From Haliotis rufescens (lineage: Eukaryota): 64,000 nucleotides of DNA. The stretch is taken from NCBI RefSeq assembly GCF_023055435.1, contig NW_025963864.1:62001-126000 (forward strand), in the 5' to 3' direction. The position numbers were made by a program, and so were the translations under genes. A model generated the notes under the pieces. It had not been told where the DNA came from. It was given only the letters and a program-made list of their open reading frames with translations, and searched no databases. Of this stretch, positions 9,801 through 64,000 are shown in pieces (within the stretch, counting starts at the first letter, position 1; the number at the start of each line of letters is the position of its first letter).

Positions 9801-12800
9801 TGCAAGTATTGCATCAGCATGTATGTCAATAAATGCGACAAAACCCTTCCACAGCCACACGTAATATCTGCTGGTCGATCGTATCAAATTTTGACCCGTT
9901 GACACTTATCGGACTTTCAAAAATAAAATAATGTATATACTATTAACATATTTTCGATTTCACCTCTTCAAGAACAAGATATATTATCAAAATTGTGAGC
10001 ATATTATTAAAACAAAATGAATCTATGAATGGGTCACCGAAATCGAATATATCTTTGTGTATGAGGTTCATTAAAAATAATGGGAGTTGGTGGATGCTGT
10101 GTGGTTTGGTGTTTTTTGTCACATTTTAATATTTTACGCTCTAATGACTTCTTGAATCTACTGATACAGCATACTTCTAATAAGTGAGTAGGGGTGTGTA
10201 AGTTAGTTTTAGCACTGCAGAATACACCAGCATACCCCGACAGCCAGTAATCTAATCAACACAACTAACAAACTAGCATGTGTTACATTCGACCGCGTCT
10301 GAATAGGATGGCCAACATCCCACGAACGTCGCCTAGCCTGACCACAGGTCGTCTCTTTTATGTAGACAAACGTTTACATATGTTACTGTAGGCCAGGTTT
10401 ATTCCAGATTTCCCACACGGGTCCCTTCGCAATACCACACCCTACATGCTGACCACTATCATCTGTTATGTTGGTGATATGTCTTTCTAGTTGATAGCTT
10501 GTTTCCAATTCTAGCTGTACGCTGATTTTTTTTTTTCAACTTAAGGAACTAACCTTTTTGCCACAGCATATACATATTAAATAGCAGACACATTGGTAAA
10601 TGTTTAAACCAAATCGCCCCTGATGAAGTCAATGATGCGACACAAATAGGCATACACATGATACTTTCATCTCTGTCTCCTTCCGGTACATATGTACCAG
10701 GAAAGGCAGGTCGACAGAGCTGCCTGTTTCCGGATTGACTTATGGTTATCACAAATGCATCTTTGTATTATATTTAGAATTTCAATATATGTACTAGACA
10801 AAGCACTATCCATAACCAAAAGAATATTTCAGAGTCAAAAAGAGTCCATTCAACGAGACTGACCACATATGTGTTTGTGAATCATTATACCGAGCTTGTT
10901 TCTTATTTAATTACAAATTGAAGAAAAAGCTGTTGTTAAATTTGGTTGTTAAATGGATGGTTTCCCTGACTGAATTAAGGTTTTGAAAACTGGATTTACA
11001 GACGGACAGACAGACGGACAGTTTATTCAGTAATTTAGGCATCAAGGCCCATAGCACAATGCAGTTTGGATATTAACATTTGTCACGTGATGTACATGAT
11101 TAGATTTTAAATCAAGTTACACATTCCTCATTATAAAGACATGTTTTAAGAAAACAAAAACATCATGGATCAAATCAGGATTTTCAGAGTTTAGAAGATT
11201 TATCATTAACCGACAGTCTTTAAAAATACCTTGCAACATGGGGAGAAATTTGTACCCTTGATGGGAATACGTTTCACATATAAGTAAGACATGGTATTCA
11301 TCCTCTACTTCTCCGGATGAACAGTTTGTTTAAATAAAGATCACAATATCATCGTCTTCGGACCTGCGACATATATTTACATTAAAATTATGCAATGAAA
11401 TTACAAGTTCCAATAAGCTCTGATTAAACTTTTATCATTTAAACAAGTTAAATATCTTTCAGTTTGTAACAATGATTTTACTTTGCTGTAATTGCTAAGA
11501 TAAAGTGATTTAGAAATACTTTGGTGCCACTTAAACCGGCAGCCCAGAGCACTTTGGTCAAACGAACAAGGTACCAATATCCGAACACAGGAACATTTAC
11601 TGTGTAACCCAACATATTCATATATGGATGTCTGCCGGGGAGCCCCTGCTGCGTGTGGCCCCTGGCCCCCCAAAAGAAGGGGCCATTCAAGGGCTGGATC
11701 AAACATTGGAGGTACCACATGAAAGTAAGTGTAAATGAACTGGTTCATCTCACAGAGTACAGAATGGGCCACGCCAGACAAATCTTCCTCTGTTTAAGGC
11801 CTGCCAGACACCCCCAGAGAGGGTCCAAAATTTGGGCTGGGTTAAACAATGGAGGTACCACATGAAATCAACATAAAATGAACTATTACACTCTACTAAG
11901 TATGAAATACCCGTTGCCAGACAAATCGTCTGCTGCATAAGGCACGCCAGACACCCCCAAATGTTGACCCTTAAACGCACTCAGTGGACACTCTGGTAAA
12001 ATTTGACTAGAGTATACATTCAAAGTACCAGATGAAAGTAAGTTTAGATGAACAGGTACATGTTACTGAGTACAACACGGCCCATACCTGACAAATATTC
12101 CTCTGCATAAGGTCCGCCAGACCACCCAGAGAGGGTCCCAAAATTTGGGCTGGGTTAAACATTGGAGGTACCACATGAAACCAACATAAAATGAACAATT
12201 GCACTCTACATATTACAAAATACCCATTTCCAGACAAATCTCACCCTCACCTCTCCCCACACAGTTGACCTTCTGTAATCCCAGTGTGCATAATGAAACA
12301 TAGGAGGCAGAAGAGCATTGGACATCAGCTCTGAGAGTCAACAGATGGTCAAATTTATGTTTTGTTCTTAGGCTTATCAACGATATGCCTAATCTATGAT
12401 ATCAATACTAGTATTCAGAGACCTGATTTTATAAATACGTGATTTTAATCTCAATAAAATCCTTCCATCTTTAAGAACAAAACATAAATTTGACCATCTG
12501 TTGACTCTCAGAGCTGATGTCCAATGCTCTTTTGCCTCCTATGTTTCATTATGCACACTGGGATTACAGAAGGTCAACTGTGTGGGTTGGGGTGAGGGTG
12601 TGTCTAGCGGGCCTTATGCAGAAGAGGATTTGTCTGGAAATGGGTATTTTGTAATATGTAGAGTGTAATAGTTCATTTTATGTTGGTTCCATGTGATACC
12701 TCCAATGTTTAAGCCTTATGCAGAGGAAGATTTGTCTGGTGTGGCCCATTCTGTACTCTGTGATATGAACCTGCTCATTCAAACGTACCTTAATGTGGTA

Positions 12801-13879
12801 CAATCGATATATATTCCAGACCAATTTTACCCGTGTATACCTGAAGGGTAAACTTTTTGTGGGTATCTGGCGGGCCTTATACAGAAGATTATTTGTCTGG
12901 CAATGGGTATTGTGCAATAAGTGCAATTGTGCAATTGTTCATTTTATGTTGGTTTCATGTGGTACCTCCAATGTTAAACCCAGCCCACATTTTGGGACCC
13001 TCTCTGGGTGGTCTGGCGGACCTTATGCAGAGGAAAATTTGTCAGGTATGGGCCGTGTTGTACTCAGTAACATGTACCTGTTCATCTAAACTTACTTTTA
13101 GTCAAATTTTACCAGAGTGTCCACTGAGTGCGTTAAGGGTCAACATTTGGGGGTGTCTGGCGTGCCTTATGCAGCAGACGATTTGTCTGGCAACGGGTAT
13201 TTCATACTTAGTAGAGTGTAATAGTTCATTTTATGTTGATTTCATGTGGTACCTCCAATATTTAACCCAGCCCAAATTTTGGAACCCTCTCTGGGGGTGT
13301 CTGGCAGGCCTTATGCAGAGAAAGATTTGTCTGGCGTGGCCCATTCTGTACTCTGTGAGATGAACCAGTTCATTTACACTTACGTTCATGTGGTACCTCC
13401 AATGTTTGATCCAGCCCTTGAATGGCCCCTTCGTTTGGGGCAGACATCCATATATGAATATGTTGGGTTACACAGTAAATGTTCCTGTGTTCGGATATTG
13501 GTACCTTGTTCGTTTGACCAAAGTGCTCTGGGCTGCTGCTCTAACTCTTGACAACTCGTATATCCTTTAGTCGTTGCTTAAATGAATAAACAAATAACAA
13601 TAAGGGGAGGATAGACTATGTCTACTCACGCTTCTCATTGTAACCATCGCATCGCTTGTTGTGTCTGTTGTATACAAAATACATACAGTCGTATTCTGTG
13701 TGACAGGTCACAGCACATAATACCAGGTTATTGTAAAGAACAGAGAACCCTGGTTTTGCTTTCTCATCGCTGTTGACATCCTGTTTTCTGCATATATAGG
13801 ACGTTTGATAAACACTGGTAGAGTTAACTGTCCAAGAGAAGCATATGCAGCAGAAGGTCCCAACTCCGAGGAGCTTCAT
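3893..13879 (-). CDS. Gene A: secreted PAN/Apple-domain + PLAT/LH2-domain protein, ~260 aa, 5 exons
   Basis: Exons 13879-13630, 8328-8242, 6110-5944, 5576-5490, 4084-3893; all GT-AG, phases 1,1,0,0, total 783 nt. Signal-like N-terminus; PAN motif CAVTCHTEYDCMYFVYNRHNKRC; PLAT motifs TYRIHIKTGKERGAGSKADLVLIIKG and DDWFVEYVLV...WLS. Confidence 0.75.
4280..5150. mobile_element. Dispersed ~0.9-kb non-coding repeat, probably a non-autonomous DNA element; other copies at ~19590-20420 (inverted) and ~47520-48430
   Basis: Shared blocks such as GTATCGACTCGA(T)CCGTG, TGATCAATGATGAC, CAGCTGGTTG, TACTCCAATGAACTCA. Confidence 0.65.
6275..6560 (+). mobile_element. tRNA-derived SINE, family B (copies 23176-23435 +, 50334-50410 - partial)
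   Basis: A-box-like TGGCCCAGTCGTCTAAG, B-box-like GGTTC(G/T)AATCCC, (CACT)n tail. Three recognisable copies. Confidence 0.7.
6870..7840. repeat. 13-bp minisatellite (GTGACCAGTGTYC)n with a higher-order 364-bp duplication
   Basis: About 70 units. The variant block TGTGTTCATAACAATTGTTC recurs at 7041 and 7405. Confidence 0.95.
9190..9760 (-). pseudogene. Dead duplicate of promoter + exon 1 (PAN exon) inside gene A intron 1
   Basis: Translates as TVYVRSSVYQTSHKCRKQD..., but ATG is changed to AAG, there is an in-frame stop at 9245 and a frameshift. 9660-9750 resembles 14115-14180. Confidence 0.65.
11000..11538 (-). mobile_element. 3' fragment of a non-LTR retrotransposon (LINE)
   Basis: Minus strand encodes NCSSGEVEDEYHVLLIC (C-terminal Zn-knuckle motif) and ends with AATAAA plus a (CTGT/CCGT)n tail at ~11000-11027. 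Confidence 0.65.
11539..13536. mobile_element. ~2-kb foldback / long inverted-repeat element with internal subrepeats
   Basis: 11539-12370 is the reverse complement of 12472-13536 (right arm has extra subrepeats at ~12600-12900). Central loop ~100 nt. Confidence 0.85.
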
Positions 13880-22500: not shown

Positions 22501-25500
22501 CATGCTGACAACATTTCAACAGGCATTATCTCAATACTGTGGTTGTGGGAGTCCACCACACTGGTGTTCAGGCGACGATGTGGTCACTCGCTGTTCGTTG
22601 ACCTTTCACTGTTTGAACTTAAACGATTGACACTGCAACTTAAGCGATGTCTAATCAGCTGCCAGGCGCATATCACTTTGCACTAACTTGTCCTCGCGAT
22701 CACGACCAGCCATATGATACTGACAAACTCGAATATCTTTGGATGTTATTATATGTATGCTACATTATGCCAGCAACAGTCATGATGGTTGTGAAAGAAG
22801 ATGTTGTCAATTTCCTGAAATCGGTTACACTTGCTATTCTGAATGAAAATTGAAGGGGTATATTTATTCCAAGGTACTGATTGGAAATAATTTTGACCAT
22901 TACATTAATAAAACACTTACCTCTACATACAAGGAAAACAGTACACAGATAACCAAGCTTGTGTCCTCCAGCTCGCCTCGTTTGCATGACAAGACGCGCA
23001 AAAAAGTGTCCTCTGGGAGAAGCTGTCTCTTAAATTTCTGAAATGTTATCCTTCGGTAACAATATTGGACCAACATAGGAACCTGTGGGCGAAATTTCCA
23101 GTCACAGCCAACGATACCAAGCGTCTTAAGACCATCTGGGATGTCGTGCACAGTTTTATAAAGTCATTTTATAATCCTAGTCGTCCAAGGCGCCGCGATT
23201 CGCTGTACAGAGTTGCGTCCCTTGGGCACGCCCGAAAACTATGGTTCGCGGGTTCGAATCCCGGTTCGCTCCGATTATGTTTTTAGGTTTGTCAGCACCA
23301 TACCCGTGCTCGTGGGTTTCACCGAAATGGTAAACGTCTGAGACCTGCATCACTTCGGGTTTTCATCCCACAGTAAGCTGATACGACGTGATATAACCTT
23401 AATACTGTTAAAAGCGGCGTTAAAACCAAACTCGCTTTTCTTTAGTGGAAGAGTGAATGTGATTAGGGGATATATTTGTTATATTTTCCAGCAATTTTCC
23501 AACAATGAAAAATGTAACCATTCGCTTGGATATAAACTAAGCGCCACCTTTGACGGCGCTCCAGTCGGAAATCGTGTAGTTACCTGCAATGTGCATCATC
23601 GTTCTTCAACTACATTCTAGTCGGGAACAGTTTAGTTACCTGGAATGTGCATCGTCCTCCTTCAGCTTAATTCCAGTCGGAAACAGTTTAGTTACCTGGA
23701 ATGTGCATCATCGTTCTTCAACTACATTCTAGTCGGGAAGAGGTTAGTTACCTGGAATGTGCATCGTCGTTCTTCAGCTAGATTCCGGTCTGTAACAGTT
23801 AAGTTACCTGGAATGTGCAACGTCGTCCTTCAGCTACATTCCGGTCTGTAACAGTTAAGTTACCTGGAATGTGCAACGTCGTCCTTCAGCTACATTCCGG
23901 TCTGTAACAGTTAAGTTACCTGGAATGTGCAACGTCGTCCTTCAGCTACATTCCGGTCTGTAACAGTTAAGTTACCTGGAATGTGCAACGTCGTCCTTCA
24001 GCTACATTCCAGTCGGAAACAGTTTACTTACCTGGAATGTGCATCGTCGTCCTTCAGCTAGATTCCAGTCAGGAAGAGTTTAGCTACCTGGAATGTGCAT
24101 CATCGTTCTTCAACTACATTCTAGTCGGGAAGAGGTTAGTTACCTGGAATGTGCATCGTCGTTCTTCAGCTACATTCCGGTCTGTAACAGTTAAGTTACC
24201 TGGAATGTGCAACGTCGTCCTTCAGCTACATTCCGGTCTGTAACAGTTAAGTTACCTGGAATGTGCAACGTCGTCCTTCAGCTACATTCCGGTCTGTAAC
24301 AGTTAAGTTACCTGGAATGTGCAACGTCGTCCTTCAGATACATTCCAGTCGGGAACAGTTTAGCTACCTGGAATGTGCATCATCGTTCTTCAACTACATT
24401 CTAGTCGGGAAGAGTTAAGTTACCTGGAATGTGCATCGCCATTCTTCAACTACATTCTAGTCCGGAACAGTTTAGTTACCTGGAATGTGCATCGTCCTCC
24501 TTCAGCTTAATTCCAGTCGGAAACAGGTTTGTCACATGGAATGTGCATCTTCGTTCTTCAGCTACTTTCTAGTCGGGAACAGTTTAGTTACCTGGAATAT
24601 GCATCGTCGTTCTTCAGCTACATTCCGGTCTGAAACAGTTAAGTTACCTGGAATGTGCAACGTCGTCCTTCAGCTACATTCCAGACGGGAACAGTTTAGT
24701 TACCTGGAATGTGCATCGTCCTCCTTCAGCTACATTCCGGTCTGATACAGTTAAGTTACCTGGAATGTGCAACGTCGTCCTTCAGCTACATTCCAGTCGG
24801 GAACAGTTTAGTTACCTGAAATGTGCATCAATGTTCTTCAACTACATTCTAGTCGGGAAGAGTTTAGTTACCTGGAATGTGCAACGTCGTCCTTCAGCTA
24901 CATTCAAGACGGGAACAGTTTAGTTACCTGGAATGTGCATCGTCCTCCTTCAGCTACATTCCGGTCTGATACAGTTAAGTTACCTGGAATGTGCAACGTC
25001 GTCCTTCAGCTACATTCCAGTCGGGAACAGTTTAGTTACCTGAAATGTGCATCAATGTTATTCAACTACATTCTAGTCGGGAAGAGTTTAGTTACCTGGA
25101 ATGTGCAACGTCGTCCTTCAGCTACATTCCAGTCGGGAACAGTTTAGTTACCTGGAATGTGCAACGTCGTCCTTCAGCTAGATTCCAGTCAGAAAGAGTT
25201 TAGTTACCTGGAATGTGCAACGTCGTCCTTCAGCTACATTCCAGTCGGGAACAGTTTAGTTACCTGGAATGTGCAACGTCGTCCTTCAGCTAGATTCCAG
25301 TCAGAAAGAGTTAAGTTACCTGGAATGTGCAACGTCGTCCTTCAGCTACATTCCAGTCGGGAACAGTTTAGTTACCTGGAATGTGCAACGTCGTCCTTCA
25401 GCTAGATTCCAGTCAGAAAGAGTTTAGTTACCTGGAATATGCAACGTCGTCCTTCAGCTACATTCCAGTCGGGAACAGTTTAGTTACCTGGAATGTGCAA

Positions 25501-28500
25501 CGTCGTCCTTCAGCTAGATTCCAGTCAGAAAGAGTTAAGTTACCTGGAATGTGCAACGTCGTCCTTCAGCTACATTCCAGACGGGAACAGTTTAGTTACC
25601 TGGAATGTGCATCGTCCTCCTTCAGCTACATTCCGGTCTGATACAGTTAAGTTACCTGGAATGTGCAACGTCGTCCTTCAGCTACATTCCAGTCGGGAAC
25701 AGTTTAGTTACCTGAAATGTGCATCAATGTTATTCAACTACATTCTAGTCGGGAAGAGTTTAGTTACCTGGAATGTGCAACGTCGTCCTTCAGCTACATT
25801 CCAGTCGGGAACAGTTTAGTAACCTGGAATGTGAAACGTCGTCCTTCAGCTAGATTCCAGTCAGAAAGAGTTTAGTTACCTGGAATGTGCAACGTCGTCC
25901 TTCAGCTACATTCCAGTCGGGAACAGTTTAGTTACCTGGAATGTGCAACGTCGTCCTTCAGCTAGATTCCAGTCAGAAAGAGTTTAGTTACCTGGAATAT
26001 GCAACGTCGTCCTTCAGCTACATTCCAGTCGGGAACAGTTTAGTTACCTGGAATGTGCAACGTCGTCCTTCAGCTAGATTCCAGTCAGAAAGAGTTAAGT
26101 TACCTGGAATGTGCAACGTCGTCCTTCAGCTACATTCCAGACGGGAACAGTTTAGTTACCTGGAATGTGCATCGTCCTCCTTCAGCTACATTCCGGTCTG
26201 ATACAGTTAAGTTACCTGGAATGTGCAACGTCGTCCTTCAGCTACATTCCAGTCGGGAACAGTTTAGTTACCTGAAATGTGCATCAATGTTATTCAACTA
26301 CATTCTAGTCGGGAAGAGTTTAGTTACCTGGAATGTGCAACGTCGTCCTTCAGCTACATTCCAGTCGGGAACAGTTTAGTAACCTGGAATGTGAAACGTC
26401 GTCCTTCAGCTAGATTCCAGTCAGAAAGACTTTAGTTACCTGGAATGTGCAACGTCGTCCTTCAGCTACATTCCAGTCGGGAACAGTTTAGTTACCTGAA
26501 ATGTGCATCAATGTTCTTCAACTACATTCTAGTCGGGAAGAGTTTAGTTACCTGGAATGTGCAACGTCGTCCTTCAGCTACATTCCAGTCGGGAACAGTT
26601 TAGTAACCTGGAATGTGCAACATCGTCCTTCAGCTAGATTCCAGTCAGAAAGAGTTAAGTTACCTGGAATGTGCATCGTCGTTCTTCAGCTAGATTCCAG
26701 TTGGGAAGAGTTTAGTTACCTGGAATGTGCATCGTCATTCTTCAACTACATTCTAGTCCGGAACAGTTTAGTAACTGGAATATGCATCGTCGTCCTTCAG
26801 CTAGATTCTAGTCGGGAACAATTTAGTTACCTGAAAATGTGCATCGTCGTCCTTTAGCTACACTCCAATCGGGAACAGTTTATTTACCTGGAATGTGCAT
26901 CGTCCTCCTTCAGCTTAATTCCAGTCGGAAACAGGTTTGTCACATGGAATGTGCATCTTCGTTCTTCAGCCACATTCCAGTAGAGAAAAGTTTAGTTACC
27001 TAGAATATGCATCGTCGTCCTTCAGCTAGATTCTAGTCGGGAGCAATTTAGTTACCTGAAAATGTGCATTGTCGTCCTTCAGTTACATTCCAATCGGGAA
27101 CAGTTTAGTTATCTGGAATGTGCATCGTCGTTCTTCTGCTATATTCTAGTTGGGAACCGTTACAATACCTTTGGTGTGCTTCGACATACTTCAGCTTTCT
27201 TCTGGCTGGGAACGGTTACAATACCATTGGTGTGCTTCGACAACCTTCATCTGTCTTCTTGCTGGGAACAGTTAAAATACCTTGGGTGTGCTTCGACATC
27301 CTGCAGCTACATTCTGGTTGGGAACAGTTAAAATACCTTGGGTGTGCTTCAGCTTCCTTCAGCTACATTCTAGCTGGGAACTGTTACAATACCTTTGGTG
27401 TGCTTCGCCATCCTTCTGCTACACTCGACCTGGGAACAGTTACAATACCCCAATTGCTCCTGTAATCATGATTGTACTATATGCCTGTGGCCTCCTCAGT
27501 ACGTTGAATAAAGAAAATGAATTGAACAGTTACAATACCTTGGGTGTGCTTCGCCGTCCTTCAGCTACATTCTGGCTGGGAACAGTTACAATACCTTGGG
27601 TGTGCTTCGGCTATCTTCAGCTACATTCCAGTAAGGAATCGGCAGAATACCTTAAAAGTACTTCGGTGTCCTTTCCCTAGTGTGATATCTTTCCCATTTT
27701 TCATTTCCATAGCAACGCTTCCACAGCTCCCTGTGATGTTTAACCACAAGTCAGCATCAGAATCAGAAAATCGTTTCCCTCCAGTCTTGACGCTTAGCTT
27801 GTAAGTTGCTGTTTTCTCTGTGTTTTGCGAAAAAAATCAGTACAACCTCATTGTGTGTCCTGCTGTCTGTGTTGGTGTGCTGGGTTTAGAAAGTATGCAT
27901 AGTGTCCTCCCTCATCACGTTTAAGAAATATGCGCGTGATATTAAACATCTATCTTTTCTGCAGCTTAACACAAAGAGCATGCATTGCTTCCGAAAGTGC
28001 ATGACCACATGATTTTTGAGAATATCGTTTGATGAAAGCGACATCTAAAGCTGCAAAAAGATTCATTCTGATATATTTTGAATTTTTGGGGTTCATGTTC
28101 AAAGCATAAATTTTAAACACTCACGCTTTCAGGAAACAATGTATATAAAATCTGCCATTCTCCTGGTTTGTGTTTCTTTGCTCTTTGGGACTACCCAGCA
28201 TGACTCAACACACAAACAATCCCATTTCTTATAATCGTTTCAATATTTATGTGTGAAAACAGCATTTCAGGAAACTTTAATCTCAAAATGTACCTTTAGA
28301 TGCTACAGTAGAATATACGGAGAGCTAATAATTTATGGATAATTTCCTAGCAGCCAACATATCAAATATACCAAGACAGATACTCACTTTGGCATTTCTT
28401 CTTGCACGTGAGTTTGTACGTCACGTGATTAGCTGTTCCATTGGTCCTTCCATTATCACAGACTTCACGAGTGTCTAGTGTAAAGAGGAAATAAGAGAAA

Positions 28501-53300: not shown

Positions 53301-53918
53301 ACTGTAAAGTTCGATTTGCTTTTCTTTTCTTTGATACCGGGATAATGGCGTTATGATTGCTTTGCTGAAATAGTAAATATCGTTTGTATAATGTACATGT
53401 ACCATGTTTGATTGTGCAAGATAATTATTGATCACTATTTAAAAATGTATATACAATGTAATATAAAATCTCCTCCGAAAATAGAACATGTTATCATAAC
53501 ACAATATGGTTCGAATTTCCAACGTTTTGCATTTGGTATGAAAGGTAATTAAGATTACATTTACAAATTATTGATGTTCATTGAACTCTTGATTACCATA
53601 TGATATTCTATCGCAAGTCATTAACATGTTTATGCTGTAGATGTTGTGTTAGCAAGGAGTAAACACGTTGTTGTTGTTGTTATTTTTCGATGGCGTTTCA
53701 ATCTCCAATTGTGTTTGTATAAGCGAAGGACTTAGTCACACATTCAGGGCTTTTACCGCTGTCCTTGATAGGACTATTCCCGATTAAAATTGAGTGAGTG
53801 GGTGAGTGAGTGAGTGAGTGAGTGAGTCAGTGAGTCAGTGAGTCAGTCAGTGAGTCAGTGAGGTTCCAGTAAAATCACATCGGAGACTCCAGAAAAATGC
53901 TGCACACATTCTTCCTAT

Positions 53919-55860
53919 TGTTACAGTGCATATGTTTCATTACACTTTTTATATTTTTAACAAATTAAACTTAAACTAGGAAATTCTAAAATTCGAAAGT
54001 CGCTAGACCAGTATTTCTCGTTTTTATCACCACTGGTCGGCCATGACGGCTGCTCCTTGGCAAGCTCATTCACGCGAACAGTAAATTACGTAATCATAGA
54101 TAAAGTCGGCGCGTACGTCCGCCCCGGCCCTTGTTCTCTTGATAAATGTTTTGTTACCAGCTGGCGCAGGTTTTGACCACCATCTTAAACTATAATTAAA
54201 ATAAACTCTTCTCAGGCAATACTGATACCATTCTATTACCACCTGCTTTTGTGTAGTCAACTTTGACAGCCCAGGGCAGATAACAGAGACCGAAATTACA
54301 ACTTCAAAGTAATTGTTAATGTGATAAGAGTAGAGCTGTGGGGGTATATAACTCCTTGGGTTTTGGTCCTCAGCACACTTGCTTGAATAAACCCTAAGGA
54401 CCTCACAGCTCTCTTCTCTCTTGTTTCAAGGTAAGAAACATTTAAATATTCTTATTTTATGACTAAACTTCTTATTTCATTGTTATTATTGTCTAGAAAA
54501 TGTTATAGTTAAGTTGAATCAGTACTGCCATATTGTAACTCTCAATCTACTGTGTACAAGTTCTAAATGACTGTTCATTATATATATTATTTACTGTTTA
54601 ATACACAGTAACTTCCCGGTGTTATTTGAAGTGTAATGCGTCGTGGGCTCCTCCAGTTTATGTGTCATTAATATGCGGCACCAATAGTTCTCTCCTATAT
54701 TTCGACATCCATAATTATATTCCCCTTCTATGTCTAACATCATCTGTTCAAAATGCCAGATGCATATACAGTTTATATTTCCGTGCAGTAGCGTAGCGTA
54801 CATGTAGCTTAGTCACAAAACGGTTCCTAGAGTTAACACAACTGTTTCAAGCGAGATTTATTACTAGGTTGGTTATTCCATACTTTCCGACAGTCCACCA
54901 ATCAAAGGTTATATGTGCAGCTTTACCTTCCGTGTGCGCTTACAGAATAGCCTATAACAACGCATTCCATATTTCTTAGGTTTTATCTTCATCAAGTAAG
55001 TATTTGAATATATTGTAAAGAGTCCCGTCCCTCATATAGTTGCATACGCTGCAACACAGCCTATACCACAATTTCATTACCGTAGTCATTTAAATACTGT
55101 TAAAGTCATCTTTTATACTTCATAATGACGTACATTCAAACGCGCACCGTTCAAGTATACAATTGCCGTATTAACTCCATTAGCTGTTATCGTCTAGCTC
55201 CGTATATATGTAGGAAATGCGCGTAGTCAATAGCAACATAGCCGCGGTGATTCATTACCGTAGTCACCAAAGTAATCACTACTAAAACTAATAATTACTC
55301 TAACTAAAACTGAGCTATATCTTCTACCGCGTACATTCGTATCTTTATTTGGATCAAGTATTTACTTTCTGTATTTGCCGAAATTATTATGTTGTGATAA
55401 TTATGACTGAAACTACAAATATTAATTTTTATCGTCTTTTCATAAGTAAATGTCATGTTCCTCATCAAAGCAGTTGGTGCAGTCTACCGTACATGCTCTA
55501 TTAAAATGTTACGACTTCTCAATTTGGCTTTTAAGAAATGTTATTTGGCATTACCGTTATTATACTTGTAAATACCGCATATGTTGTATAATGTTACCGT
55601 ACATACTCCAATATTAATTACATTGCTTTTATTATTATGCCTTTATGAGATGGACACTGTGTTAGCATATTATGATCATTATTATCATTGTATGTCACTA
55701 TTATATATAAATTGATGTAACTCGAATGATACGACACTTGCTTGAATAAACCCTAAGGACCTCACAGCTCTCTTCTCTCTTGTTTCAAGGCTAGCTCCCA
55801 ATAGCTAATTCCCCAAACCGAGGCCTGACAGTATTGGAATCCCAACAAGGCTGTCTTAAT
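53919..55860 (+). mobile_element. 5' LTR (~1.94 kb) of element 2
   Basis: TGTTACAG start shared with 63390. TATATAA 54345-54351. Ends before the TGG of the PBS. Confidence 0.85.
54375..55790 (+). repeat. 57-bp exact direct repeat (54375-54431 / 55734-55790) bracketing a predicted 1359-nt GT-AG intron (54431-55789)
   Basis: Identical copies containing AATAAA and CTCTCTTCTCTCTTGTTTCAAG. Copy 1 is followed by GTAAGA. A third copy plus donor lies in the 3' LTR at 63846-63907. Confidence 0.88.
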
Positions 55861-55871
55861 TGGTGGAGACG
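55861..55871 (+). promoter_or_regulatory. Primer-binding site, probably tRNA-Ala
   Basis: TGGTGGAGA is complementary to the ...UCUCCACCA 3' end typical of tRNA-Ala and lies upstream of gag. Confidence 0.6.
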
Positions 55872-56059
55872 TTCGATCCTCGGTGCCTGGAGCCAGCCTT
55901 GTGAACTACAAGTTGAGACTGTGACGTTACCTGTACCTGACTCCACACTACCACCACCACCTCCACAGCTTGACACCACACTATGCCTGCTGACACCATC
56001 GTCCCCTACAGAAGCAACAACACAGTCAGTCTCATCTTACCCAGCAACAACCCCCAGTA

Positions 56060-59000
56060 ATGGCACAGATACATCTCCCTAAATACACAGGTCAGCAGGA
56101 TGCTGAAAGTTGGTGGGCAGATTTCTACAACTTCAACTTCCTTCATGGTCACACAGACACCCAATCCTGTAGAATTCTACCCTTCTACCTGGACGGAGCT
56201 GCTAAAGTATGGTTCAGGGACCTCCCTGCGCACACACAGCTGGACATCCACTTGCTGAAAGCAGCCTTTCAGCAACGATTCCGAAGTTCGCCAGCTTTCA
56301 ATTTGAGTCTTCTTGACATGACACAGAAGAAACAGGAGGACGTTGGAGACTTCATCACCAGGGTCCAAGCATCTGCGTTACACTCCTGCTTACCACAATC
56401 TGTGATAGTAGCCATTGCAATCAATGGGCTACTCCCACAGATTAAGCAGTGGGTGTATATGAAGGAGCCATTGACCCTGGATGAGGTTCGTCACCATGCC
56501 CAACTGGCTGTACAATCGCAGGCCCCAAGCAAGGAAGAGGTCAGCTTGGTCCAACAAGTTGAGCAATTAACGAACTTGGTGACCATGCTGATCACTACAA
56601 ACAAGGTCTGTGCTGTACAATCAGCAACTCCCTCATCCCACCATCAGCAGCACGAGCCCCAGGTCCAGCAACAGCCACCCTCCCCATCACCAAGATACCA
56701 CCAGCAACCACAACAGGAACCATACCAACCACAAGAGGATCCATACCAGTCACCACAGCAGTACCAACCACCACAGGAACAATACCAACCACCACAGGAT
56801 CCATACCAGTCACCACAGGAACTATACCAGTCACCACAAGAACCATACCAACCACCACAGGAACCATACCAGTCACCACAGGAACCATACCAACCACCAC
56901 CACAGCAGTACCAACCACTACAACATCAATACCAGATACGGCAGGAACAATATCAACCACCACAGCACTATCAGCCACCACAGAAGGAGTATCCAGTTCC
57001 ACCACCTCAGCCCCACCACACAGCACATCAACAACAACAGACGCCATCCTTCTACCCGTACAGCTCCAGCAACAGTCAAAGTCTGCCAATTCCACAGCAC
57101 CTTCGAGGCAGATGTCGCGGATGTGGTGAGTTTTTTCGGTTCCCTCACAATTGCCCTCATAGAAATACAGTCTGTAATTATTGCTCACGCATAGGTCACC
57201 ATGCAAAGGTATGCATGCGCGCATACTATGCACAATATCAACAGCCACAGGGACTCATACCTGATACTCAGCGTTCTGGGGTCAGGCAAGAGTCAGCCTT
57301 TGTATCACTTGTTGCTCCCTTGACAAAGAACACTGTTCATGTCAAGGTTAAACAAGTGAGAACTACAGCTCTTGTTGACACAGGTGCATCAGTTAGCTGT
57401 GTCAGCATGGGCTACTTAAATAAAGTTGGCATCAAACCCTCTCATTTACACCCATCTCACCTAACTGAAATCATAGGTGTAGGTGGTGAAAAACATTCTG
57501 TGCTAGGTTCTGTCTCTCTTGACATTAACATAGGGCATATCTACCTCCCCCAAATCTTTCATGTCTTTCACAACTTACATCACTCTCTCATCTTAGGCAT
57601 TGACTTCCTTGAATTAAACAAAGTCACTATAGACCTGCCCTCAAAATGTCTTCACATACATGAAGGTCTTGTTTCAGTCTCTCTGGCATCAATCAATGGA
57701 GGCTACGCAAGACCATGCAAGTCTGTAATTATTCCTCCACACTCTCAAGCTGACATTCCCATCAAAATTTCTCATTGTCAACAAGGTCAAGTTTTTCTTC
57801 TTGAACCAGTTCCGGCATTAAATGACATGCAGCTCCAAGGTGCTAAGTGCCTTATAACCAACAATCCAAAATCAGCTTGCATGAGATTGCTTAATGCTAG
57901 TGACAGCCAGGTCACTTTATATTCAAAAACAGTGGTTGCTGTAGCCTCAGAGATTGACCCCACATCTGTCCTTGACCTTCCTGACACTTCTGATTCTGAT
58001 CCTCCTACTACTACAAGTGCTAACACAACACATTCACAGGACATTGACTTTGATATAAGTGATGCAGACCTCACACATGAACAACAAACACATTTACGTG
58101 CATTTCTCCAATCACAAAGGTCAGTTTTTGCCTCAGATTGGTCAGAATTAGGACACACCCACTTACATCAACACAGAATAGAAACAGGTGATGCCAGATC
58201 GATTAGACTCCCTTTTTACAGGCAAAACGCAGCCATAAGAAAAGAATGTTCAAGACAGGTGAAAGAAATGTTAGATGCCAATATCATTCAACCTTGTTCT
58301 TCTGAGTGGCACTCACCTGTTGTCATGGTTAAGAAACGTGACAGCTCTTACCGCTTTGCCGTAGATTATAGACGTCTCAATGCAGTTACTAAGCCTATAT
58401 TTTTTCCTCTGCCACGTTTTGAAGATGTCGTTGATGCCGTAGGTGACAGCCATGCCAAAATCTTTAGTGTGCTTGATTGTGCTAGTGGCTTTTGGCAAAT
58501 ACCACTCCACCCAGATACAAAACACAAGTCAGCCTTCATTACGCCTGATGGTGTTTTTGAATGGAATCGCCTTCCTTTCGGCCTCAAAAATGCTCCTATG
58601 GCATTTCAGCAAACCATTTCAGAGGCACTAAAAGAGATGAATTGGCGTTACATATTGATATATGTCGATGACATAATAATATTTTCTAAAACCTTTTCTG
58701 AACATCTGAATCACCTCAAGGCAGTATTCCAAAAGATCAGTGAAGCAGGCCTCACTCTAAAACCCAGCAAATGTAAATTCGCGACAAAACAAGTTACCTA
58801 CTTAGGGCATATCTTCAGTAAAGATGGCATCCATGTTGATCCTTCCAAAATAGATTCAGTCACACAGATTCCACCTCCTAAAAATGTCCATGACGTGCGC
58901 CATTTCCTAGGTTTGGCATCATATTATCGGAAATTTGTAGCAAACTTTTCGGGCATTGCCTCCCCTCTTTACAATCTTCTTAAAAAAGATGCATCTTTCG

Positions 59001-61885
59001 AATGGTCATACAATTGTCAACAGGCATTTGAAAAGCTAAAACATGCCCTTACAACTGCACCTATCCTCGCATACCCTGACCAAAACCAACCCTTCATCCT
59101 CACAACTGATGCATCACAAACTGCAATAGGGTACATCTTAGGCCAACTTGATCCTCAAGGTAGAGAACATGTAATATGTTATGGCGGCCGCTCTCTCCAT
59201 ACTGCTGAAAAGAATTGGGGTATCACACATCTAGAATGCCTGGCCGTCCTAGAAGGTATTAAAAACTTCAGGGTGTACCTTGCAAATGGATCATTTTCTG
59301 TTTACACAGACCACAAAGCTCTGACTTGGCTTAAGAAAACCAAACATGACTCTGGTCGCCTTAGTAGATGGTCCCTCATGCTGCAAGAGTATGATTTTGA
59401 GATCATACACAGGCCAGGCAAAGCCAACACAAATGCAGATGCCTTATCTCGCATTCCTCATGCAGAGCAAGTACATCAACCTAACACTGATGATATACCC
59501 TCCCCACCCATTTCAACAGAACCCATCTCATCAACCCTCACATATGAACAAGTAGCTGCCACTGCTTCATCTCCACTCTTACCCACTCCAACTTCACATT
59601 CGATGTCACCATCAAGCAGCCCCAAAGTGTCATTCCCTCATCACCAAGGCAACATGAGGCCTACTCCCTCGACTGCCACTTCTCACCATTATGCCAATCC
59701 CAATACAGGCAACATGAGGTTTACACCCTCGACTGCCACTTCTCGCCATTATGCAAATCCCAATGCAGGCAACATGAGGTCTACACCCTCGACTGCCACT
59801 TCTCACCATTATGCCAATCCCAATACAGGCAACAAGAGGTCTACACCCTCGACTGCCACTTCTCCCCATTATGCCAATCCCAATGCAGGCAACAAGAGGT
59901 CTACACCCTCGACTGCCTCTTCTCTCCATTATGCCAATCCCAATACAGGCAACAAGAGGTCTACACCCTCGACTGCCACTTCTCACCATTATGCCAATCC
60001 CAATACAGGCAACAAGAGGTCTACACCCTCGACTGCCCATTCTTCCCATTATGCCAATCCCAATACAGGCAAAAAGAGGTCTACACCCTCGACTGCTCAT
60101 TCTTGCCATTACGCCAATCCCAATGCAGGCAACATGAGGCCTACACCCTCGACTGCCTCTTCTCTCCAACATGCTTATTCTCACTCAGCCAACAAGAGGT
60201 CTACACCTTCAACTTCCTTCACTCGCCAATATGCTTATTCAAAAGCAGGCAATATGAGGTCTACACCCTCAACAGCCTTATCTCACAAACCAGCCAGCCA
60301 TGCTCATCCAAGTCCCATGCCACCTACTGACAAGAAGACAAATAAGTCGGTCACCATTGCTACAAAATCCTCCAACAACAGTGTCCACACCAAACTACCA
60401 TTCATGTCTCGTCCCTCCAGCCAACTGAGGTCTTCTTCCTCTTCAACCAAATCATGCTCATCTCCACAAAACAACTTTCCAAAGCATACAAACATTGACA
60501 ATGACACTCTTGACTCACACAGTGTCTCATCAGAAGATATCAGTAGAGATGACATAACATCCTCTATATCTGTAGACTTTGTCTACAAGTCGGGTCCTCA
60601 CGATCCTCCTTCAGGCCCTATGGTCTTTGCTATAGGAACTGATCTTGATGATAAAGACTTGGCAGAAAAGCAACGTAAATCCCCTGACCTTTGTCCAATC
60701 ATGGACTACATTGAAAAAGGTGAAATTCCTTCCACCTATACAGATGTTCAAGTCAAGGGTCTAACTGGCCTTGCTCAAGAGTATGACATACGTGATGGTA
60801 TTCTGTACCACTTCTATCATGCAAAGCATCGAGGTCAGAAAAACAATCGCCCTCCTATGGTAACACAGCTAGCTGTCCCTGTCTGCTGTCGCAAAGAGCT
60901 TCTTTTTGCCTACCATGATTCCAAAGCTGGTGGTTGCCACTTTGGACGAGATGCCACTCGTCAGACAATACTCACAAAGTATTACTGGCCAGGCTTATAC
61001 CAGGATATTGAGAATTATGTCAAGTCCTGTGATGACTGCCAACGCTCCAAAAGAAGGACAAATGCTAAGCCAGCACCAATGGTGCCCATGCCTATTGAGG
61101 ACACATTCTCTCGTCTCCATGTTGACATCCTCGGGCCATTGCCTGAGACTAAGGAAGGTTATAAGTATGTTCTCCTTGCAGTTGATTCCTTCTCACGCTG
61201 GACAGAAGGTTTCCCTATGCGCACTCAAGAAGCCTCCGAGGTTGCATCAATCCTGTTCACTGAGGTTTTCTCACGGTTTGGTGCTCCCCGTACTCTTCTT
61301 ACTGACAGAGGTAGGCAGTTCACTTCCAAGCTAGTAAATGCTCTCTGTGAACTCCTCGATATCAAGCACTACTACACTTCGTCCTACCACCCCCAGACTA
61401 ATGGGATGTGTGAAAGGAGGAACAGTGTCATAGAGCAGGCTCTCCGAACATATGCTGACCCTGATCAGACCAATTGGGCCAAACTCATTCCATGTGTTAT
61501 GATGGCCATGCGCAATGTACCTTGTCAATCTACAGGGTATTCACCACACTACCTTCTGTTTGGAAAGGAAATGAATCTTCCTTTTGACACAACCTTGCTG
61601 CCTAAATCTACCCTCGGCAAAGATGCACAGGGTCATCTTCAAGATCTCTTGAAAAATCTGAATGTTGCAAAATCCCTTGCAAAGGACAACATGTCTGCTG
61701 CTCAGGATAAAAGCAAGAATCTTCAGGATATCAGAGCCAAGGAACCTTCATTTGCAGTTGGTGATCAGGTTCTCATGACTGATCCAACTGTCAAAACTGG
61801 CCTTTCCCCCAAACTGTCAAAGAAATGGACCTTACAGAATCATTCGCATCGGTCTAAACCATACATTCAAACTACTGAACACTAA
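56060..61885 (+). CDS. Gag-Pol polyprotein (gag, CCHC, protease, RT, RNase H, integrase); C-terminus frameshifted near 61827
   Basis: CNYCSRIGHHAKVC zinc knuckle; ALVDTGAS protease; RLPFGLKNAP/YVDD RT; TTDAS...TDHKAL RNase H; HHCC and D,D,E integrase (HVDILGP, TDRGRQF, YHPQTNGMCER) in Ty3/Gypsy order. Confidence 0.97.
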   Translation: MAQIHLPKYTGQQDAESWWADFYNFNFLHGHTDTQSCRILPFYLDGAAKVWFRDLPAHTQLDIHLLKAAFQQRFRSSPAFNLSLLDMTQKKQEDVGDFITRVQASALHSCLPQSVIVAIAINGLLPQIKQWVYMKEPLTLDEVRHHAQLAVQSQAPSKEEVSLVQQVEQLTNLVTMLITTNKVCAVQSATPSSHHQQHEPQVQQQPPSPSPRYHQQPQQEPYQPQEDPYQSPQQYQPPQEQYQPPQDPYQSPQELYQSPQEPYQPPQEPYQSPQEPYQPPPQQYQPLQHQYQIRQEQYQPPQHYQPPQKEYPVPPPQPHHTAHQQQQTPSFYPYSSSNSQSLPIPQHLRGRCRGCGEFFRFPHNCPHRNTVCNYCSRIGHHAKVCMRAYYAQYQQPQGLIPDTQRSGVRQESAFVSLVAPLTKNTVHVKVKQVRTTALVDTGASVSCVSMGYLNKVGIKPSHLHPSHLTEIIGVGGEKHSVLGSVSLDINIGHIYLPQIFHVFHNLHHSLILGIDFLELNKVTIDLPSKCLHIHEGLVSVSLASINGGYARPCKSVIIPPHSQADIPIKISHCQQGQVFLLEPVPALNDMQLQGAKCLITNNPKSACMRLLNASDSQVTLYSKTVVAVASEIDPTSVLDLPDTSDSDPPTTTSANTTHSQDIDFDISDADLTHEQQTHLRAFLQSQRSVFASDWSELGHTHLHQHRIETGDARSIRLPFYRQNAAIRKECSRQVKEMLDANIIQPCSSEWHSPVVMVKKRDSSYRFAVDYRRLNAVTKPIFFPLPRFEDVVDAVGDSHAKIFSVLDCASGFWQIPLHPDTKHKSAFITPDGVFEWNRLPFGLKNAPMAFQQTISEALKEMNWRYILIYVDDIIIFSKTFSEHLNHLKAVFQKISEAGLTLKPSKCKFATKQVTYLGHIFSKDGIHVDPSKIDSVTQIPPPKNVHDVRHFLGLASYYRKFVANFSGIASPLYNLLKKDASFEWSYNCQQAFEKLKHALTTAPILAYPDQNQPFILTTDASQTAIGYILGQLDPQGREHVICYGGRSLHTAEKNWGITHLECLAVLEGIKNFRVYLANGSFSVYTDHKALTWLKKTKHDSGRLSRWSLMLQEYDFEIIHRPGKANTNADALSRIPHAEQVHQPNTDDIPSPPISTEPISSTLTYEQVAATASSPLLPTPTSHSMSPSSSPKVSFPHHQGNMRPTPSTATSHHYANPNTGNMRFTPSTATSRHYANPNAGNMRSTPSTATSHHYANPNTGNKRSTPSTATSPHYANPNAGNKRSTPSTASSLHYANPNTGNKRSTPSTATSHHYANPNTGNKRSTPSTAHSSHYANPNTGKKRSTPSTAHSCHYANPNAGNMRPTPSTASSLQHAYSHSANKRSTPSTSFTRQYAYSKAGNMRSTPSTALSHKPASHAHPSPMPPTDKKTNKSVTIATKSSNNSVHTKLPFMSRPSSQLRSSSSSTKSCSSPQNNFPKHTNIDNDTLDSHSVSSEDISRDDITSSISVDFVYKSGPHDPPSGPMVFAIGTDLDDKDLAEKQRKSPDLCPIMDYIEKGEIPSTYTDVQVKGLTGLAQEYDIRDGILYHFYHAKHRGQKNNRPPMVTQLAVPVCCRKELLFAYHDSKAGGCHFGRDATRQTILTKYYWPGLYQDIENYVKSCDDCQRSKRRTNAKPAPMVPMPIEDTFSRLHVDILGPLPETKEGYKYVLLAVDSFSRWTEGFPMRTQEASEVASILFTEVFSRFGAPRTLLTDRGRQFTSKLVNALCELLDIKHYYTSSYHPQTNGMCERRNSVIEQALRTYADPDQTNWAKLIPCVMMAMRNVPCQSTGYSPHYLLFGKEMNLPFDTTLLPKSTLGKDAQGHLQDLLKNLNVAKSLAKDNMSAAQDKSKNLQDIRAKEPSFAVGDQVLMTDPTVKTGLSPKLSKKWTLQNHSHRSKPYIQTTEH
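59646..60275 (+). repeat. 60-bp in-frame tandem repeat (~10 copies) between RNase H and integrase
   Basis: Encodes GN(K/M)RSTPSTATSHHYANPNT-like 20-mers. Confidence 0.95.
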
Positions 61886-62417
61886 CACAAACAAAGAACA
61901 TAAATCCTTCATTCATGCCAACAGACTTAAAACTTATACACCTCCAACCCCTCGAAGACAACATGCACAACCAGCTCAGCATCTAGCAACACCCACTCAG
62001 TCGACGGCCTCCCAGCCCGACAATCCTCGTAGAGAAGCCTCACAAACAGCCCAGCATCAATCAAATCCAACTCAGTCAACATCCTCCCATCCTGACAACC
62101 CTACCACAACACAGCACACTTCCGTAGAGCATCCCATTATGATACCTCACCACTCGTCTGATAACTCTGACAATATTCCACAGAGTCCCACATCATCTGC
62201 CCAACCAGATGATCAACTTTATGCTGTAAAACGCATACACAAAGCTAAAAAGAAGTCAGGAGTAACTCATTACCTAATTGAATGGGAAGGTTACCCCCAA
62301 CGCACCTGGGAACCTGCCTCCAACCTTAGTGCAGAAATGATAAGTGATTACCATACATTTAGAACAGGATCTGGTCACAGACGGAAACGGAAACACAGAT
62401 ATTTTGCAAAATCATAG
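61827..62417 (+). CDS. Out-of-frame integrase C-terminus: GPY/F motif, linker and chromodomain
   Basis: Open frame from 61827: GPYRIIRIG...FIHANRLK...LYAVKRIHKAKKKSGVTHYLIEWEGYPQRTWEPASNL. Confidence 0.85.
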   Translation, partial: GPYRIIRIGLNHTFKLLNTNTNKEHKSFIHANRLKTYTPPTPRRQHAQPAQHLATPTQSTASQPDNPRREASQTAQHQSNPTQSTSSHPDNPTTTQHTSVEHPIMIPHHSSDNSDNIPQSPTSSAQPDDQLYAVKRIHKAKKKSGVTHYLIEWEGYPQRTWEPASNLSAEMISDYHTFRTGSGHRRKRKHRYFAKS

Positions 62418-63389: not shown

Positions 63390-64000
63390 TGTTACAGTGC
63401 ATATGTTTCATTACACTTTTTATATTTTTAACAAATTAAACTTAAACTAGGAAATTCTAAAATTCGAAAGTCGCTAGACCAGTATTTCTCGTTTTTATCA
63501 CCACTGGTCGACCATGACGGCTGCTCCTTGGCAAGCTCATTCACGCGAACAGTAAATTACGTAATCATAGATAAAGTCGGCGCGTACGTCCGCCCCGGCC
63601 CTTGTTCTCTTGATAAATGTTTTGTTACCAGCTGGCGCAGGTTATGACCACCATCTTAAACTATAATTAAAATAAACTCTTCTCAGGCAATACTGATACC
63701 ATTCTATTACCACCTGCTTTTGTGTAGTCAACTTTGACAGCCCAGGGCAGATAACAGAGACCGAAATTACAACTTCAAAGTAATTGTTAATGTGATAAGA
63801 GTAGAGCTGTGGGGGTATATAACTCCTTGGGTTTTGGTCCTCAGCACACTTGCTTGAATAAACCCTAAGGACCTCACAGCTCTCTTCTCTCTTGTTTCAA
63901 GGTAAGAAACATTTAAATATTCTTATTTTATGACTAAACTTCTTATTTCATTGTTATTATTGTCTAGAAAATGTTATAAAGTTGAATCAGTACTGCCATA
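63390..64000 (+). mobile_element. 3' LTR of element 2 (partial)
   Basis: Near-identical to 53919-~54531. Confidence 0.97.

Follow-up and report, generated by a model that had tools for sequence, protein, structure and literature searches.

The 64,000-nucleotide stretch of Haliotis rufescens DNA analysed here (the window) contains a Ty3/Gypsy retrotransposon whose long terminal repeat (LTR) holds a predicted spliceosomal intron between two copies of a putative first exon, in the order U3-TATA-block-GT intron-block(AG)-U5. We consider it probable, at roughly 80 %, that the RNA of this element is spliced at its 5' end, that its strong-stop cDNA jumps onto the second copy of the block in an unspliced 3' end, and that the intron is regenerated by this jump. 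The textbook LTR is U3-R-U5, and the disappearance of introns during retrotransposition has classically demonstrated that an RNA intermediate exists and underlies the reporters that score retrotransposition events; a natural lineage in which a spliced intron persists by means of a duplicated R would be an exception to both. The wider proposition, that the LTR architecture has not been described before and has its intron regenerated, and the acceptor re-templated, by first-strand transfer in each cycle, that it defines an entire mollusc-type Gypsy subclade and that its solo LTRs are promoter-plus-first-exon cassettes for host genes, we regard as somewhat favoured by the evidence.

The 5' LTR of the element (53919-55858, forward strand, like the other parts of this element and the second LTR given below; 1,940 bp) has the termini TG...TA and is preceded by CTAT at 53915-53918, a 4 bp target duplication that is present on both sides of the element. 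The U3 or promoter region, placed at 53919-54374 by the position of a TATA box (TATATAA, 54345-54351, 30 nt upstream of copy 1), is followed by copy 1 of the block (54375-54430), the putative first exon and R, which includes AATAAA at 54386-54391, a pyrimidine tract and AAG. The predicted GT-AG intron of 1,359 nt (54431-55789) is AT-rich (33 % GC), contains 30 ATGs, and ends in copy 2 (55734-55790), the candidate 3' R landing site and splice acceptor, with AATAAA at 55745-55750, AG at 55788-55789 and a hypervariable 5' edge at about 55728-55733. U5, which would form the start of exon 2, occupies 55790-55858. Positions 54375-54431 and 55734-55790 are identical over 57 nt and the identity extends no further on either side, copy 1 being followed by TAAGA (so that a donor GTAAGA runs from 54431) and copy 2 by CTAGC; AATAAA stands at block position 12, and a 20 nt AG-free tract (90 % pyrimidine) precedes the AG. 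The repeat is not a matter of chance, since its BLAST E value is 3e-23 and the layout is found again in all 30 LTRs fetched for the family and in six further families. A first-pass annotation had reported the TATATAA, the 57 nt exact repeat, the donor, the 1359 nt GT-AG intron, U5 and the primer-binding site, and all of these are confirmed in the sequence; the repeat length it gave also stands, although the exon that it equated with the block is properly 56 nt (54375-54430), the 57th base being the G common to donor and exon 2. No stable fold was found for the copy 2-U5-primer-binding site segment (z = 0.65).

Downstream of the LTR, a gag-pol ORF (56060-61885) encodes a product (P0001) with Pfam matches to protease (448-540), reverse transcriptase (RT; 779-940), RNase H (1029-1133) and integrase (1628-1800), an order that is that of Ty3/Gypsy elements (Metaviridae), and a second frame (61779-62417) carries, after the integrase, a chromodomain (PF00385, E 1e-7), which is a chromovirus feature. 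The 3' LTR, of which the first 611 bp lie in the window (63390-64000) with a third copy of the block at 63846-63902, a donor and the start of the intron, is preceded by a short purine-rich tract and continues past the window end with copy 2 and U5; it differs from the 5' LTR by four substitutions in 1,620 aligned bases, and its intron has deletions of 3 bp and 317 bp. An integrase is present and GIY-YIG is absent from the Pfam matches of the window element, which sets it apart from Penelope-like elements; nor is the LTR canonical, an R-like block occurring twice around an intron and the termini being TG...TA rather than TG...CA. The closest named proteins are molluscan (Haliotis, 74 %; Pinctada, Mytilus and Ruditapes, 52-58 %). 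By its predicted domains, then, the element is a chromodomain-bearing member of the Ty3/Gypsy group (Metaviridae) with a non-canonical LTR. The pol frame is broken at about 61830 (near 61.83 kb), before the chromodomain, in the window copy, and other copies of the family have longer open frames; the TG...TA ends at 53919 and 55858, with 4 bp target duplications, are also found at other loci of the family. An upstream ORF of 25 codons (55983-56062) terminates at a TAATG shared with the start of gag, which may allow translation to stop and restart there. There are in-frame tandem repeats between RNase H and integrase (10.5 x 60 nt, 59647-60277), and gag contains Q/P/Y-rich in-frame repeats of 21/63 nt (56705-56965).

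The primer-binding site (TGGTGGAGA, 55861-55869) is a 9 nt complement of the 3' end of a genomic tRNA-Ala, and about 50 nt upstream of it, within U5, is an 11 nt stretch perfectly complementary to the host tRNA-Ala at its 5' end (55804-55814). The core of this second complement, TAATTCCCC, is shared by five of seven related families and by a 50 %-identical outgroup (L031, L032, L033, L052 and, as outgroup, L115 among them); because it also occurs in the outgroup, a primer-binding site in two parts seems to predate the intron layout. At about 221-278 kb of G000:C51, more than 100 tRNA-Ala genes stand in tandem at about 500 bp spacing (125 matches, 100 of them listed).

In the mechanism that we propose, transcription would start about 30 nt after the TATA box, at copy 1. 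In the 5' LTR the intron would be spliced out, with excision at copy 2, to give cap-copy 1-U5-primer-binding site, and this splicing would also remove the copy-2 poly(A) signal and the 30 upstream ATGs. At the 3' end the RNA would run unspliced through U3, copy 1 and the intron and end in copy 2, being cleaved after the second AATAAA. Minus-strand strong-stop cDNA would then consist of U5 and copy 1, to which a G copied from the cap or additional upstream bases would sometimes be joined; it would anneal to copy 2 and be extended through the intron, copy 1 and U3, rebuilding the intron in both daughter LTRs. Copy 2 would in this way derive from the 5' copy 1 of a parent, whether on the same RNA or on one packaged with it, and the transfer point would be the 5' edge of copy 2, and a cDNA landing on copy 1, or an RNA ending there, would yield an intron-less LTR of 582-585 bp. 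The weakest step is the choice of poly(A) site, which might depend on U1 at the donor together with cap-proximal exon definition and which we would put only slightly above even; silencing of the copy-1 signal by U1 is suggested by analogy with HIV-1 and foamy virus, and U1 at the donor is not enough to account for the copy-2 signal being passed over in the 5' LTR. The likely benefit to the element is a heritable promoter-proximal intron, with its effects on expression, export and a clean leader.

The layout is common to a group of related families. The clade sample was made up of eight other elements from an RT search and of a second element found at the window's start, and the same layout is present in L031, L032, L033, L050 and L052 (RT 67-79 % identical) and in the second element of the window (RT 65 % identical, the link to this RT match being drawn from position), whose 3' LTR (1357-2903) has a TATA at 1829, a block at 1860-1941, GTAAGA, and an identical block at 2822-2903. 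L034 represents the L052 family in its short form; the region captured for L051 contained no LTR; and the 50 %-identical RT relative L049/L115 has an ordinary 907 bp LTR with no duplicated block (the L049 region itself being without an LTR). All seven families with a captured LTR (RT 65-100 % identical, the window family included) have the layout, and the sampled LTR of each contains an exact repeat of 45-82 nt, with copies 664-1,982 nt apart, a TATA 30-32 nt before copy 1, and a repeat end at AG/GTAAG. The proposal that identity runs from the predicted start site to the splice junction, made originally for one LTR, applies to the sampled LTRs of all seven: as far as start sites and donors can be predicted, these are what bound it. 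Between families the blocks are 33-75 % alike and the introns give no BLAST match; the copies are identical in the sampled LTR of each family while blocks and introns diverge between families, and the two copies therefore evolve together. AATAAA lies inside the block in six families, 33-60 nt before the AG, as had been described for the window LTR; it is not essential there, since in L031 the only AATAAA near the blocks sits just upstream of copy 2, a position which suggests that the working poly(A) signal is the intronic one, spliced away at the 5' end. A generic TATA-AATAAA-donor pattern gave 50 matches, mostly to known families, against eight in a reversed control. A metagenome scan yielded no donor-ended repeat at 61 loci, nearly all of which were less than 55 % identical or short, and the single 77 % match came without its LTR, so that this result says nothing about other hosts.

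Within the family of the window element, in the 1.33 Gb host assembly, each of 30 fetched LTRs, chosen by similarity to the long LTR, has the layout, with AAG/GTAAGA after copy 1, AAG/GC after copy 2 and introns of 1,287-1,372 nt. Unselected exact-pattern counts across the genome, which are lower bounds, gave at least 41 long LTRs and at least 11 intron-less ones (52 matches, on many contigs); a majority of single-block LTRs, which the first-pass annotation had named as a sign of a one-off duplication, is not seen. Short LTRs anchored at both ends (n = 9) measure 582-585 bp, three elements carry two short LTRs each between matching target duplications, and the U3 sequences of short LTRs are scattered among those of long ones. 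Judging from these sequences, intron loss has arisen more than once and the system leaks, about one LTR in five being short, which hints at a leaky choice between 5' and 3' processing. A single lineage of intron-less LTRs was rejected by a U3 tree test (p-AU 8e-6; nine short against 28 long U3 rows), which left out L025, L030 and L047 as unanchored and L046 as divergent, and in which sister LTRs are non-independent and U3 recombines. One element (L043/L022; G000:C1, 47.817-47.827 Mb) combines a 5' LTR of the short form with a 3' LTR of the long form, T47C being common to both. Downstream of L022 and of L027 the primer-binding site is longer and matches the tRNA (TGGTGGAGAATCCGGG), as if primer sequence had been copied in. 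Tandem elements that share LTRs, three and four in a row, occur in two families (L009/L017/L029 and L013/L016/L020; G000:C614, 174-198 kb).

Transcripts were sought in public sequencing, of which 4 of 24 runs were covered; only small-RNA libraries are recorded as RNA, and three runs of contigs (X1, X5 and X6) are guessed to be RNA, with a depth that is flat per contig and contigs that cannot show ends. Two reads matched in the small-RNA run. In X1 a 1,727 nt contig spans U3, copy 1 and the intron unspliced at a depth of 92, with a depth of 0-7 over U5 and gag, and a loose end carrying the purine tract precedes the LTR; X6 and X5 point in the same direction more weakly (intron depth about 30-140, U5/gag 9-25). 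These depths are consistent with RNA whose 3' end forms without regard to the AATAAA of copy 1. One probable-RNA contig of X5 leaves the block at 54432, at the donor, and enters host sequence that in the genome is preceded by a pyrimidine tract and AG/GT. The host exon so joined has two genomic matches: one, with a single mismatch, lies 11.3 kb downstream of the solo LTR L024 on the same strand (rough chance 5e-4) and opens a fucosyltransferase-like reading frame, and the other, L035, is exact, the 9.9 kb upstream of it being free of any LTR of the family. This one contig of a probable-RNA run is supportive of use of the donor in RNA, and both donor use and the unspliced 3' end are supported indirectly by such contigs. 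The junction string TTTCAAG/GCTAGCT, which had been put forward as a test of splicing, is uninformative in RNA because it is already genomic, in copy 2 plus U5 and in the intron-less LTRs. At G000:C35, 26.637-26.649 Mb (L024, L036), the solo LTR appears to be the promoter and first exon of a fucosyltransferase-like gene, of which the L035 paralogue is without a nearby LTR.

The first-pass annotation had reported full identity of the two copies and had proposed that they would co-vary, and both hold in part. Identity is complete in the window LTR, and across the family the copies are identical from block position 3 on in 11 of 30 LTRs, the remaining 19 differing by one to three changes. In favour of co-variation, C20T is present in both copies in two insertions and C42T in both copies in one, and among 12 paired insertions of the L033 family the two copies carry the same base at the main polymorphic site in 9, while a single private change is found in both copies (scored by eye; related copies are non-independent). 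Against it stand the 19 non-identical LTRs, A33G, which is confined to copy 1 in two separate insertions (L009/L015/L017), and the three discordant L033 pairs; A22G/A23G of L002/L003 are likewise limited to copy 1; C42T is also found in copy 1 only and in copy 2 only in other insertions. No copy-2-only variant is common to independent insertions among the 30 LTRs. Discordant copies are accommodated by the mechanism, not predicted by it; they call for a lag of one generation, which the mechanism does expect, for subsequent mutation or for templates of mixed origin. Transfer from one co-packaged RNA to another is known (bioRxiv 2022.12.06.519325).

First-strand transfer leaves errors at the U3/R border, where mismatch has been reported for Ty1 and M-MLV (PMC5399748). 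Of 1,934 six-base windows, the one at the 5' edge of copy 2 varies most, with 11 haplotypes among 19 insertions, and nine junction types are seen there in 21 insertions. The 5' edge of copy 1 shares the ACAC context, yet 18 of the 21 insertions are alike at it, the others being one AC gain, one replaced upstream region and one unparsed. Directly before the core, copy 2 has a G in 12 of the 21 insertions and copy 1 a C. In the family of L033, scored by eye, CTTC precedes copy 1 in 34 of 34 cases and seven different 4-mers precede copy 2 in 33, with G at -1 of copy 2 in 12 of these 33. An extra G is what cap copying by the RT of LTR elements would give. The same origin of an extra G has been reported for L1 (PMC11702581). 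Sister LTRs agree on the junction in all seven multi-LTR insertions, and the junction must therefore form before integration. A test for a break in linkage at the edge of copy 2 gave r = -0.12, where 23 control windows ranged from 0.00 to 0.71; adjoining intron segments were likewise uncorrelated (0.07 and 0.11), which makes this weak evidence. On this pattern of variation the 5' edge of copy 2 behaves as the U3/R border, and hence as the strand-transfer point. The genomic tests bear out the core of what the first-pass annotation proposed: the anatomy is present throughout the family and conserved beyond it, the identity of the copies is concerted in seven families, the scar is found at copy 2 only, and variants occur in both copies.

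Since an unspliced genomic RNA would scar copy 1, the RNA must have block plus U5 at its 5' end, which could arise by splicing from copy 1 or by initiation at copy 2. The latter is the basis of the alternative that survives best, improbable as we judge it, in which an ordinary LTR is transcribed from copy 2 and replicates without splicing, and copy 1 is merely a second R left behind within a long U3, its likeness to copy 2 being maintained through gene conversion or template switching. It too predicts the scar at the copy-2 edge, and the window LTR has a TATA-like TATATAAA 30 nt upstream of copy 2 (at 55704) that had gone unnoticed in the earlier annotation. A TATA at about this distance before copy 2 is, however, peculiar to the window family and lacking in the other six, whereas all seven have one before copy 1; the intron-less LTRs retain the copy-1 promoter and integrated with target duplications; gene conversion gives no reason for the identity to stop at GTAAG in seven families; and the donor appears to be used. 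A shade less probable again is retention in the retroviral style, with a packaged RNA that is unspliced (R being copy 1-intron-copy 2) and splicing of the translated mRNA only. Unspliced genomic RNA is the standard means of keeping an intron, as for those of Ogre and EVADE (PMC12786077), and intronic sequence is abundant in the probable-RNA contigs, but a scar at the copy-1 edge would be expected and in two families it is found at copy 2; moreover, a duplicated exon is superfluous on this route, which offers no means of holding the two copies identical as the families drift apart. A one-off duplication, nested insertion or assembly artefact, for which nothing speaks beyond the earlier view of a single copy, is refuted, with virtually no probability left to it, by the 41 long-form matches on many contigs, the seven families, the intact target duplications and the intronic sequence in independent public runs.

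Regeneration of the intron by transfer onto copy 2, which we prefer to these alternatives, can be set beside several known systems. The element shares with other chromodomain Ty3/Gypsy elements the domain order PR-RT-RH-IN-chromodomain, a primer-binding site, a polypurine tract, paired LTRs and a 4 bp target duplication, and departs from them in having U3-R-intron-R-U5 in place of U3-R-U5 and ends in TG...TA. Split-intron retroviral vectors (Ismail et al., 2000, as reviewed in PMC3182074) likewise have a functional intron assembled by reverse transcription, a splice site being moved through the LTR; as that review describes them they are engineered, work for one round and are self-inactivating, with the donor copied from the 3' LTR and the acceptor internal, whereas in the abalone LTR both splice sites are inside the LTR and the layout is self-renewing. 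Penelope-like elements also keep a promoter-proximal spliceosomal intron, in the 5'-UTR within a pseudo-LTR, and deletion of the Penelope intron abolished reporter expression; in the passages of these reports that deal with the intron, its retention is called unresolved and a duplicated exon goes unmentioned (PMC8557442, PMC2377424). They belong to a different class, described as having a GIY-YIG endonuclease and neither integrase nor strand transfer. The layout thus works like an engineered split-intron vector and parallels retention in Penelope-like elements, and belongs to neither.

Spliced transcripts contained within LTRs, with introns of mean 1.3 kb, are described for maize LTR retrotransposons, and the authors claim the first evidence of LTR introns relevant to element biology (bioRxiv 10.64898/2026.05.08.723830); the transcripts are treated as non-coding RNAs, and the main text of that preprint, in which neither 'direct repeat' nor 'strand transfer' occurs, proposes no duplicated R and no regeneration. 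In HIV-1 and foamy virus a donor beside the poly(A) signal allows U1-dependent occlusion of the 5'-LTR site, and in RSV, MMTV and HTLV-1 the signals are located in U3, so that the mature 5' end does not include the working signal (PMC12789967); by that account the HIV-1 and foamy virus donor is outside the LTR and acts at the 5' end only, whereas here it is inside both LTRs. No description of a U3-R-intron-R-U5 layout was found in the full-text literature searched, a body that lies apart from subscription journals, Repbase Reports, supplements and much older literature; it is absent from the available text of PMC10886601, PMC5542766, PMC10018344, bioRxiv 2022.12.06.519325 and PMC3061985.

If the mechanism is correct, the scar would mark the point of first-strand transfer in genome sequence, and cap copying and transfer between RNAs could be studied from assemblies alone. 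It would also offer a testable route to the maintenance of an intron, and perhaps to its origin through duplication of an AG/GT segment, provide a natural counterpart to engineered split-intron vectors, and explain how LTRs donate a promoter and first exon to host genes. Elsewhere in the window there are a 56 nt satellite of about 64 copies (23560-27653) and a nest of long inverted repeats (11531-13544).
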